Positions 33,949 through 36,721 of a stretch of DNA of 64,000 nt are shown here, piece by piece; the first letter of the stretch is position 1, and each line of letters starts with the position of its first letter. Where the stretch lies: assembly GCA_943787795.1 (NCBI GenBank), contig CALSNU010000001.1:1088001-1152000 (forward strand), in the 5' to 3' direction. Source of the stretch: an uncultured bacterium (GTDB lineage: Bacteria; Planctomycetota; UBA1135; GCA-002686595). A program made the translations under genes and the position numbers. The notes beneath the pieces were generated by a model. It was not told the origin of the DNA and searched no databases. It saw only the letters and a list, made by a program, of their open reading frames with translations.

Positions 33949-34856
33949 AGGGCGACGGTCCATGCGAGGGCGATGATCGAGAACGTCGCGGCCGCGAGGC
34001 CCGCCTGGGCGCGCGACCCAAGGCGCTCGGCGAGGTCCAACCTGCTGACGGCGACACCGATCAGCGCTCCGGCCGTGAAGCCGGTGGCGTGGGCGAGGAC
34101 ATCGACCCGCCCGGAGCCATCTCCCGCGCCGAGCCACCCGAAGAGCACCGCCCCGCCGAAGAGCGGCGCGACGCGGCGGACCCAGGGGGCGCGTGCCTTC
34201 CCCCGCCGCGCCCACTCGGAGGTCACCATCACTCCGAGCGTGCCGAAGATCGCCGTCGAGGCGCCCACGGCGGTGTGAGTCGGCGAGGTCAGGTAGGACT
34301 CGGTGAAGTTCCCGAGCGCGCCCGCTGCAAGCGTGCAGAACCATGCCAGCCCCGCACCGAGGGATTGAGCGGCGAGGATGCCGAAGAGGGAGCCGAACAC
34401 GAGGTTACCCACGAGGTGCTGCGCATCCACGTGGAGTGTCAGCGCAGTGACCGCCCTCCAAACCTCTCCGGTGCGTACCTGAGCTGCGCTCATGAGGCCC
34501 TCATCCCACCAGTTCAATCCGAACGCCCCCTTCTGTCCGATGGGGAAGAACAGCACGCAGAGCAGACCGAAGGAGAGCGCGGCCACAACGCCCTTGCTGC
34601 GAATCGGCGGGGGAGGTGGGGAGGGGTGGCCCCACGTGGCGGCCTCGGCCGCGAAGTCGACGAGCTCTGCGCTTGCGCCTGGCGCGTCGTGTGCGAGCAC
34701 GAGGACTCGGGCGCCAGCCCCGTTCACCTGGACCGAGTGCTGGATGCCCCGCGCCTGCAGGGCGAGGGCGCTGTCCCTGACCGCGCGCCGGGACCGGCCG
34801 CGGAGGACCTCCACATGGCCCGGAGGTAGTGGGCCGAAGGAGTCGGCCTGATTCAT
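33933..34856 (-). CDS. Rhomboid family intramembrane serine protease with N-terminal soluble domain
   Basis: 'WRAVTALTLH...HLVGN', catalytic 'GASTAIFG' Ser and 'AHATGF..G' His; several TM helices; ATG at 34856. Confidence 0.92.
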   Translation of the reverse strand: MNQADSFGPLPPGHVEVLRGRSRRAVRDSALALQARGIQHSVQVNGAGARVLVLAHDAPGASAELVDFAAEAATWGHPSPPPPPIRSKGVVAALSFGLLCVLFFPIGQKGAFGLNWWDEGLMSAAQVRTGEVWRAVTALTLHVDAQHLVGNLVFGSLFGILAAQSLGAGLAWFCTLAAGALGNFTESYLTSPTHTAVGASTAIFGTLGVMVTSEWARRGKARAPWVRRVAPLFGGAVLFGWLGAGDGSGRVDVLAHATGFTAGALIGVAVSRLDLAERLGSRAQAGLAAATFSIIALAWTVALWPMP

Positions 34857-34894
34857 GGCTTGGAGGGCATCTTGTCCCGCTCGTTCCTCGACTC

Positions 34895-35263
34895 TCAGCC
34901 CAGGCGCAGCAGGCAGTCGGGGCAGCGCTGGGCGCCTCGGGGAATCTCGGCCATGCACGCGGGGCACTGCGAGGACTCCGCGTCGAGGTCGATCACGTGC
35001 TGAGACGCCTCGAGGGCCACGCCCTCGGGATCGAGGCGCATGAGCTCCTCGTTAGCGTCGCGTTGGATGAGCTCGGCTGCTTGTTGAATGTCAGGCTTCG
35101 CGACCGCGAGCCAGAGGGCCGCGCCTCAGCCGTTGGGGTCGACTCCAGGCGGACAGATCACGCGGGCCTCAAGGCCCGCCTTCTCTAGGCGCACTCGCTG
35201 GTCGTTGACGGCCTTGAACTTGCCCTGGCTCAGGACGGCCATGTGTTCGGGGAGCTCGGTCAT
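34895..35263 (-). CDS. Putative selenoprotein, 122 aa, in-frame UGA at codon 46, C-terminal double-CxxC zinc ribbon
   Basis: Manual translation: MTELPEHMAVLSQGKFKAVNDQRVRLEKAGLEARVICPPGVDPNG-UGA-GAALWLAVAKPDIQQAAELIQRDANEELMRLDPEGVALEASQHVIDLDAESSQCPACMAEIPRGAQRCPDCLLRLG-stop. It fills the yciB-rhomboid gap and a SECIS-like hairpin follows the UGA. Confidence 0.8.
35094..35128 (-). promoter_or_regulatory. Candidate bacterial SECIS element
   Basis: mRNA reads UGA-GGCGCGGCCCUCU-GGC-UCGC-GGUC-GCGA-A-GCC; the GGUC apical loop starts 21 nt after the UGA. Confidence 0.72.
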
Positions 35264-35284: not shown

Positions 35285-35902
35285 TCAGTCTTCGGTCGGA
35301 GATTGGGGGCTGTGCCGGTGGATCAACGGCTGCTGCAGGAGCATGAACAGGAAGGTCAGTCCAAGGATCCCGAACAGCTTGAAGTTCAGCCACACCGATG
35401 TGGTCGTGGATCGCCACACCAGCTCGTTCAAGCCTGCAATCACGAGGAAGAACAATCCCCAGCGCAGAGACAGCGTACGCCAGCCCTTCTCATCGAGCTC
35501 CAAGGTGGCCCCGAGCAGGGGCTTGATCAGCGCCTTACCCAGAGCCCAGCCAATGAGGAGGGTCGAGCCCATGAGCCCGCTGACGATGGTGGGCTTGTAC
35601 TTGATGAAGCGCTCGTCGTTGAAATAGACGGTCAGGCCTCCCATCACGAGCACCACGGCGCCGGTAATGAGTGGCATGGCGTGGATCTTGCGCTCGATGG
35701 CGTAGGAGATGGCCAGAGCGATCGCGGTCACCGCCACGAAGATCCCAGTGGCCCAGATCAACCCCTGGGTGTCGTCCTCGACGATCCGCTTGGCGACGAA
35801 GAAGGTCCCGAAGAAGACCACCAGCGGGCCCATATCGAGGACGAGCTTCAGCTGGGGGGACAGGGTCGGGGCTGCCGGATCTGAGTCAGGGGAGGTCGCC
35901 AA
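35285..35902 (-). CDS. yciB: Inner membrane-spanning protein YciB (septation protein A / IspZ); start uncertain
   Basis: 'LDMGPLVVFF', 'GGLTVYFNDERFIKYKPTIV', 'W..LS.RW..FF', 'LNELVW', 'WLNFKLFG'. Confidence 0.93.
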   Translation of the reverse strand: MATSPDSDPAAPTLSPQLKLVLDMGPLVVFFGTFFVAKRIVEDDTQGLIWATGIFVAVTAIALAISYAIERKIHAMPLITGAVVLVMGGLTVYFNDERFIKYKPTIVSGLMGSTLLIGWALGKALIKPLLGATLELDEKGWRTLSLRWGLFFLVIAGLNELVWRSTTTSVWLNFKLFGILGLTFLFMLLQQPLIHRHSPQSPTED

Positions 35903-36565
35903 GAGAAGGTGGCACGAGGGGTTGGGGCGGTTGGACGTGGAAGACGAGGCGCTCGAGCGTCCGGGGTCGAGGGGCCCCAAAGGCTACCCCGATCATGGAC
36001 GCAAGCGAGGGCTCGATCTCCGTGTCTGCTCTCGGATGAAGCTCGGCGCGAGCTCGAAGTCATAGCTCGTGGTCGCGCTGGGCCACGGTCCACGCCGATG
36101 CGCCCCTCCGTCGAAAGGGGGCCAGCACGAGGCCTCGCACCGACGCGGAGGTCCCGTCCCAGGGGGGCAGCAGTGGGAGCTGCCGGAGAGGTTCAGCGTG
36201 AAGCTCACCTGGTGCCAGGTGTCCGGTGACAGGTCACGGATCACCGGGGCTGGTCGCAAGAAGGTGGGGGGCCCTCATTCTTCCGGGAAGCACGAGTCTC
36301 CCAAGGATCGGACACGGGACCCGACGGTCGATCGGGCCCATTCTCGTTCAGGCCCGGCGTCCGGACAGGCCCAGCGTCCGGACAGGCCCAGCGGCCGGGC
36401 AGACCCAGCGGCCGGGCAGACCCAGCGGCCCGGAAGGCCCGGTGTCCTGTCAGGCTCAGTTCCTGATCCGCTTCAGTCTCCGATCAGGTCTGGTCTCCGG
36501 TCGGACCCCCGCACCATCGAGCTCGGCGCCCATGGGGACCCGTCAGCACCGGGCCTGTTCGCCCC

Positions 36566-36721
36566 GGGCCCGTCAATGCAGAGCCCGTCAACGCAGAGCC
36601 CGTTAACGCAGAGCCCATCAACGCAGAGCCCATCAACATCGGGCCCATCAACGCAGAGCCCATCAACATCGGGCCCATCAACACAGAGCCCATCAACACA
36701 GAGCCCATCAACACAGAGCCC
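36566..36721. repeat. 15-bp minisatellite GAGCCCATCAACRCA, 10 copies
   Basis: Tandem copies ending ~15 nt from the lexA stop codon. Confidence 0.93.

Follow-up and report, generated by a model that had tools for sequence, protein, structure and literature searches.

Protein DG of Desulfosediminicola was predicted by deep-Sep in 2025, and the available part of that report, which calls it 'hypothetical protein DG', assigns it neither a conserved domain nor a function (PMC12013277). It underlies the NCBIfam family NF049953, 'zinc ribbon-containing (seleno)protein DG', and the available text of a 2026 review lists 'Hypothetical protein DG' with the motif GUxG (PMC13188914). The DG sequences in the published material at hand consist of an N-terminal zinc ribbon, a loop carrying selenocysteine (Sec) and a C-terminal ribbon. 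The main text of BSepDB and one supplement, its genome list, contain no mention of DG or of a zinc ribbon. A second family relevant here, DUF3343 (PF11823), has been proposed, without experiment, to be a Se/S-trafficking chaperone (available text of PMC5322559). For decoding, the closest described element is the SECIS of Escherichia coli fdhF, a hairpin inside the coding sequence just behind the UGA, with a GGUC apical loop at +19.

Here we describe a locus in a stretch of 64,000 nucleotides (the window) that very probably holds a real, conserved and unannotated gene making one 122-residue short DG-type selenoprotein. The kind of system is not new, the decoding mechanism being textbook and the family already named.

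A short relative of protein DG in marine Planctomycetota

The coding sequence lies on the minus strand at 34895..35263, from an ATG at 35263 to a TGA stop at 34897-34895, and has a lone internal TGA, codon 46, at 35126..35128, which we read as Sec. This frame had been pointed out in the earlier note and was borne out on the sequence, together with the context ICPPGVDPNG-U-GAALWLAV, the Cys nine residues before the UGA (Cys37) and the C-terminal CPAC...CPDC (residues 100-117). The gene was indeed missed by the ORF track, as the standard ORF list has no ORF spanning the whole of it. It sits between yciB/ispZ (35285..35980, minus strand, 21 nt before the ATG) and a rhomboid protease gene (33933..34856, minus strand, 38 nt after the stop), mentioned for context only; the identification of these neighbours as IspA/YciB and rhomboid agrees with the note. 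Its view that both halves look coding also held: a dicodon model trained on this genome scored them 0.71 and 0.59, against -0.73 to -1.49 for shifted frames, and among 7 close relatives dN/dS was 0.104 for codons 1-45 and 0.105 for codons 47-122. Contigs from RNA libraries, which may be DNA, cover 34764-35119 and neighbouring pieces and leave the UGA uncovered.

Public protein sets store the gene in pieces (three of three matches start after the TGA, and more N- and C-terminal fragments are listed), as would be expected of a nonsense pseudogene or of two small genes. We give these readings, and that of a sequencing error, practically no weight. The same TGA is retained down to ~32% protein identity with dN/dS of 0.10 on both sides of it, the orthologues without TGA are single ORFs, and the modelled sheet described below spans codon 46. 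Contigs of two DNA runs (X11, X13) from two other marine studies span codon 46 and carry an unchanged TGA there; the agreement of these independent assemblies excludes assembly error as its source.

The nearest named relatives of the protein are 86-90% identical to it and are labelled Planctomycetota/Planctomycetaceae in four of six records and 'uncultured bacterium' in the other two. Its only real NCBIfam match is NF049953 (E 3e-14), which it meets over positions 57-171 of 172 with 53.3 bits, against a cut-off of 130. The earlier note had held that the protein is not one of the classical selenoenzymes and had left open whether the family is catalogued; it is, as this DG family. The likeness lies in the Sec loop and in what follows it. 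In both proteins a G-U-G precedes an Lx[LA]V strand (G-U-G-A here, G-U-G-G in the central-domain loop of DG, whose context in the accessible supplement reads, by eye, CAKG-U-GGPDLQLVV), long Cys homologues align at the Sec column, giving a Sec/Cys pairing, and the C-terminus carries a CPAC...CPxCxLR ribbon. The differences are in length (122 residues against a 172-position model), in the host (Planctomycetota against what we take to be Desulfobacterota for Desulfosediminicola) and in the cysteine before the Sec, which forms CxxxU in the DG sequences available and is at -9 or absent here. Above all, the N-terminal ribbon of DG is missing. The CxxC...CxxC motif of profile positions ~5-55 was absent upstream in all 44 loci with TGA, and the upstream frame of the gene is closed by the stop codon of yciB. 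The NF049953 cut-off was reached by none of 32 homologues, the best of which scored 115 bits. Since both the cut-off score and the test for the N-terminal ribbon failed, we file the protein as a short variant and not as a member of NF049953; a score below the NCBIfam cut-off, with the storage of the gene in pieces, also explains why annotation misses it. In a search for longer or fused forms, 8000 candidates were scored and yielded one protein, apparently joined by a frameshift to a PF00962 partner (presumably of the adenosine-deaminase family); this is weak evidence that such forms are absent.

We found the gene in 40 of 61 related genomes, including 33 of 36 within the marine Planctomycetota family, and the best match has one TGA in 38 of the 40. 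In a sample of the phylum, 32 of 301 genomes have a match, 17 of them with TGA. Outside the phylum, Atlas clusters from Myxococcota and Bdellovibrionota hint at further NF049953-like genes. A second, weaker copy without TGA was seen at G026:C182:16904-17209, and at G020:C32:12208-12550 the gene matches in two pieces, possibly because of a frameshift.

Among the first 30 loci, the rhomboid gene is a direct neighbour in 20 (17 of the same genus, the present one included, and 3 of other genera) and yciB in 18; in 27 later loci the rhomboid gene was never adjacent. Adjacency to yciB, lexA, VWA and rhomboid genes is mostly genus-level synteny, and beyond it recurrence is limited to ApaG, in 3 loci, and a TIM-barrel gene, in 4 loci of one family. 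Among the neighbours scanned there was no selenium-metabolism gene and no recurring metal-transport gene. The neighbourhood gives no functional lead.

Three further features of the window were noted around the gene. The rhomboid gene begins with a soluble N-terminal stretch (34593-34856, minus strand) that by eye resembles a DUF2007-type domain; a profile test against the DG alignment detected no significant homology to the N-domain of the studied protein (probability 2%). An ORF of 262 residues at 30502-31290 (plus strand) shows membrane segments, a zinc ribbon at its N-terminus and a weak similarity to DUF2500, none of them above cut-off. Short tandem repeats with ~24-nt and 15-nt units lie at ~33690-33850 and ~36480-36720 and appear as repeated peptides in the ORF list.

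Probable selenocysteine at codon 46

The genome, which is 85% complete, has selA, selB and selD above curated cut-offs, selD with an in-frame TGA of its own, and a tRNA-Sec gene (selC), the only tRNA with a UCA anticodon that we found. All four genes that the earlier note had asked about are thus present. A coding-potential scan revealed many further in-frame TGAs at catalytic Cys positions. A comparison of 18 such candidates with NCBIfam placed 14 in Fdh or redox families across the part that bears the TGA, with Fdh, ArsC-like and SelW-like proteins above cut-off; of the other four, three have no match and one matches only away from its TGA. By its gene content the source organism is a heavy Sec user.

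Several of these candidates deserve mention in their own right. The selenoproteome is large and comprises Fdh, SelD, DsbD-like, AhpD-like, six TlpA/ResA-like, two thioredoxin-like, ArsC-like, SelW-like and SelL-like proteins, with TGA at the catalytic site. A protein of 216 residues with a signal-peptide-like N-terminus (G000:C4:265186-265986, minus strand; locus L089/L137) has TGAs at GKG-U-SA and PGLT-U-SDT with a hairpin behind each, and both TGAs are retained in 19 of 20 matches from 41 related genomes; it belongs to no NCBIfam or Pfam family and is a candidate uncatalogued two-Sec protein. In-frame TGAs with a two-sided coding signal and downstream hairpins were also seen in G000 at C1:990334(+), C2:428135(-), C8:5572(-), C2:620327(-), C6:581711(+) and C8:38656(+). 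The contexts in this set are GSC-U-G and GCT-U-G in proteins without a family, FDT-U-STYWR in an FG-GAP/ASPIC and TlpA protein, NNW-U-CIG, GYI-U-ICM and VPV-U-PMC, the last in a protein that recalls, we assume, reductase selenoprotein B.

At the position of codon 46, 57 loci from different genomes, which are kin and so do not give independent counts, have TGA in 44 cases, Cys in 10 and Trp, Thr and Leu in one each, so that Cys makes up 10 of the 13 loci without TGA. (The count omits L072, two weaker matches and L043 and L044, which duplicate G000 and G044; L054, on a cut contig, is counted as Cys and stands outside the hairpin comparison.) The genomes with TGA have selA in 43 of 44 cases, the remaining one being 78% complete, and both near-complete genomes that have the gene and lack selA carry Cys, a residue that also occurs alongside selA. 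This co-occurrence says little, as selA is present in 219-221 of 301 sampled Planctomycetota genomes (219 over the cut-off). Sec use looks like the rule in the phylum. A set of 32 full-length representatives, picked from 68 phmmer matches, has Cys in 20, Trp in 3, Pro in 3, Ala in 2, Arg in 2 and Thr and Tyr in one each. The earlier note would have taken Trp or another non-Cys residue at the site as refuting Sec, and to the letter such residues are there, in 12 of the 32. They fail to refute it, because the Trp forms sit in a clade with TGA forms and TGA is the main stop codon of the genome. Having neither Cys nor Sec, these 12 suggest that several lineages can do without the reactive residue.

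Behind the TGA, inside the coding sequence, lies a SECIS-type hairpin (35094..35112, minus strand) of the sequence GGC-UCGC-[GGUC]-GCGA-A-GCC, with the GGUC loop at 35105-35102 (+21 to +24), a 4-bp core, a bulged A and three further pairs. It resembles the fdhF element in its place just behind the UGA and in its loop, and differs from it in the loop position (+21 against +19), in its GC-rich stem and in a bulge on the 3' side; the Fdh gene of this same genome has its GGUC loop at +19, like that of E. coli. The hairpin had been proposed from the single sequence as fdhF-like, and on that footing it did not stand: a 56-nt fold was not significant (z = +0.92, with 159 of 200 shuffles folding as well), the hairpin appeared in the centroid only, and a search of Rfam at E up to 10 returned no SECIS family and four chance matches. 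What backs it is comparison. GGTC occupies +21 to +24 in all 44 TGA loci, and an identical 12-mer, coding for L-A-V-A, is found in 40 of them; the same 12-mer is used at only 12 of 185 LAVA-coding sites genome-wide, and elsewhere in the gene invariant residues show free variation at third positions. The proportion of synonymous differences, pS, falls to 0.054 in codons 51-57 from 0.40-0.49 in the rest of the gene. Double-sided, compensatory changes occur in four of seven stem pairs. The covariation score of 0.218, which by the tool's own warning is inflated by the relatedness of the sequences, was higher than those of 500 out of 500 shuffles and of each of the six slid controls. The bulge in this genus leaves pair 19-32 open in 18 of the 43 rows.

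The hairpin was found in none of nine Cys orthologues tested. In the Thr orthologue (ACC) the loop is changed to CGUC, and in one TGG orthologue (L057) the hairpin is intact. Such a hairpin follows 56 of the 107,840 TGA triplets of the genome at +16 to +24, and only two of them at +21; the second of the two is a DsbD-like gene, at its UxxC site. On this comparison the hairpin appears tied to TGA rather than to Cys codons.

Could UGA46 be read as Trp or another standard residue, through a change of the code or leaky read-through? The three of 32 representatives that have Trp at the column, and the TGG of L057, would fit, yet TGA ends 1556 of the 1918 long ORFs in the genome, and the studied gene as well. 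As TGA is the usual stop, there is no altered genetic code; the sole UCA-anticodon tRNA found is tRNA-Sec, the hairpin follows TGA and not Cys, and the Trp forms nest among TGA forms. We regard such decoding as highly improbable. The Sec reading is supported by the full sel machinery, by the pairing of TGA and Cys at the column and by the conserved hairpin. Given the established mechanism of SelB, Sec is almost certainly inserted at UGA46: SelB with Sec-tRNA(Sec) would bind the GGUC-loop hairpin 21 nt behind the codon, and where insertion fails translation would stop and leave a 45-residue fragment.

The Trp forms offer a view of how the element may change. L057 (G045:C59) has TGG at the Sec column and has kept the GGUC hairpin, and its congener L058 has TGA. 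L057, two Trp representatives and two TGA genes, one of the latter from the genus of L057, form a clade with good support; the tree as a whole is poorly resolved (121 columns, bootstrap unsettled), and this Sec/Trp clade is the one part of it that we use. The simplest reading would be that UGA changed to UGG recently and that the hairpin still persists, in part because the LAVA peptide is conserved. In engineered E. coli, Sec has been shown to enter at UGG in a SECIS-dependent way (available text of PMC3834832).

The Sec loop and its possible functions

The N-domain (residues 8-77; 35033..35242, minus strand) has the order beta-alpha-beta-loop(U46)-beta-alpha. In an AlphaFold2 model with C in place of U (pLDDT 93.8, pTM 0.73), residue 46 lies in the loop between strands 2 and 3, and the domain is followed by a short helix and the ribbon. 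Among fold matches, PDB entry 2HFV (RPA1041), which we take to be a DUF2007 protein, gave a VIA Z of 6.0 (rmsd 4.2, 66 residues aligned) and a Foldseek E of 0.029, and no Foldseek match was significant; DUF2007 clusters also occur among the Atlas look-alikes of a natural homologue. PrgK/EscJ scored higher (Z 8.1-8.7), and a secretion role on that ground was rejected, the match being taken as one of a common small fold. A sequence search of the PDB gave weak matches only (best E 0.009).

By HHalign, the N-domain matches DUF3343/Se_S_carrier at 90% and DUF2007 at 89%, and the profiles of these two families match each other at just 6%. The profile match, and more loosely the fold matches, fit the suggestion of the earlier note of a possibly DUF2007-like N-domain; by profile the domain is about equally near DUF3343. 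The DUF3343 alignment scored 36, whereas 60 column shuffles reached no more than 16 and the reversed control 11 (control probabilities at most 2.5% and 0.3%, respectively). It sets U46 on C39, the invariant loop Cys of DUF3343 (20 of 20 sequences; P-x-P...C-G loop). DUF2007 (PF09413) probably shares the small alpha/beta fold and differs in that none of 20 DUF2007 domains compared has a loop Cys. Neither Pfam family claims the protein. The score to PF11823 is 13.5 bits (E 0.052) against a gathering cut-off of 25, and Sec and a zinc ribbon set the protein here apart from DUF3343; PF09413 (gathering 25.7 bits) gave no match for the 122-residue protein at E up to 1, with one of 33 alignment members matching weakly, and the PF09413 match that the genome does have is another gene. 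PF11823 itself had no match in this genome or in 7 genomes of the same family. Among the neighbours scanned within 1.5 kb (81 of 95 candidate ORFs, many without a family) there was no Sec lyase, YedF or selD, and the selA and selD of this genome lie on another contig. The literature searched, which included few subscription papers, showed no link between DG and DUF3343, and the available text of the 2026 review does not mention DUF3343 (PMC13188914).

The C-terminal part consists of a VIDLDAE linker and a C4 ribbon (C100, C103, C114, C117; 34898..34996, minus strand) whose four Cys are invariant in 30 of 30 loci. It gives weak DZR and zinc-ribbon Pfam matches, below cut-off, and probably binds zinc. 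Cys37 (35153..35155, minus strand) is present as the earlier note had remarked, and it is restricted to certain lineages: a Cys stands at -9 in 18 of 44 TGA loci and at other spacings in 9, and 17 have none within 12 residues. A homodimer prediction for a natural Cys homologue with zinc scored 0.00 and gave no answer, so it is evidence neither way.

The protein may accordingly be pictured as a DUF2007/DUF3343-like alpha/beta domain, whose loop from strand 2 to strand 3 bears the Sec, linked to the ribbon, which would be a structural or partner-binding module. Because U46 aligns with the invariant Cys of DUF3343, we tentatively favour, at somewhat less than even confidence, a reading in which the exposed selenol carries Se/S or senses redox state reversibly. 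Sec46 would close an Se-S bond with the upstream Cys where there is one (here Cys37, a possible resolving partner), and the oxidised form might be reduced again by the thioredoxin-fold selenoproteins of the genome. Several observations speak against a carrier or sensor. Non-Cys substitutions are common at the site, the domain is equally close to the Cys-less DUF2007, the carrier role of DUF3343 is itself a hypothesis, the neighbourhood is uninformative, and most Sec-using Planctomycetota are without the gene. As the gene occurs in 32 of 301 genomes of the phylum, and selA in 219-221, it is no core part of Sec synthesis.

The same selenoprotein could use Sec46, alone or with Cys37, as a ligand for a soft metal (Cu, Hg, Zn) and act as a metal chaperone or sensor. 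Its small size, the C4 ribbon and the loop-borne Sec or Cys, which in 27 of 44 TGA loci is preceded by another Cys at a distance of 3-10 residues, would suit this role, and metal-binding selenoprotein families are listed in the available text of the 2026 review (PMC13188914). We nevertheless consider it unlikely: the spacing of the second Cys varies and 17 of 44 loci have none, no metal-transport gene recurs among the scanned neighbours, and weak matches to CopA span residues 65-110 and not the Sec loop. Still less probable, in our estimate, is that Sec46 is mainly regulatory or near-neutral in a DUF2007-type adaptor with a ribbon, the UGA and SECIS serving to tie its synthesis, and perhaps that of the rhomboid protease, to selenium. 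The Trp, Thr, Pro, Ala, Arg and Tyr found at the site in intact genes point that way, as do the equal profile similarity to the Cys-less DUF2007 and the adjacent rhomboid gene in 20 of the first 30 loci, but Cys is the commonest residue where TGA is absent (20 of 32), as at catalytic Sec sites, and the rhomboid link is confined to part of the family.

Implications for the DG group

Returning to the favoured carrier or redox-sensor reading, the alignment of Sec46 with the DUF3343 Cys is the first testable functional lead found for the DG group. A bolder and rather doubtful extension would make DG-type proteins a Sec-bearing branch of a DUF3343 Se/S-carrier superfamily, shuttling Se/S on the exposed Sec, and would have the UGG of genes like L057 decoded as a Trp/Sec mixture through SelB wobble. 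If this were true, an L057-type gene would be a natural selenoprotein gene without UGA, invisible to TGA-based searches.

The hairpin accompanies TGA and TGG, is lacking with TGC and has a broken loop with ACC; this natural series forms a compact test set, which serves the study both of SECIS evolution and of Sec insertion at UGG. For the family itself, the gene adds to the DG selenoprotein group, a prediction no older than 2025, a short form that has no N-terminal ribbon and occurs in nearly all genomes of one marine Planctomycetota family.
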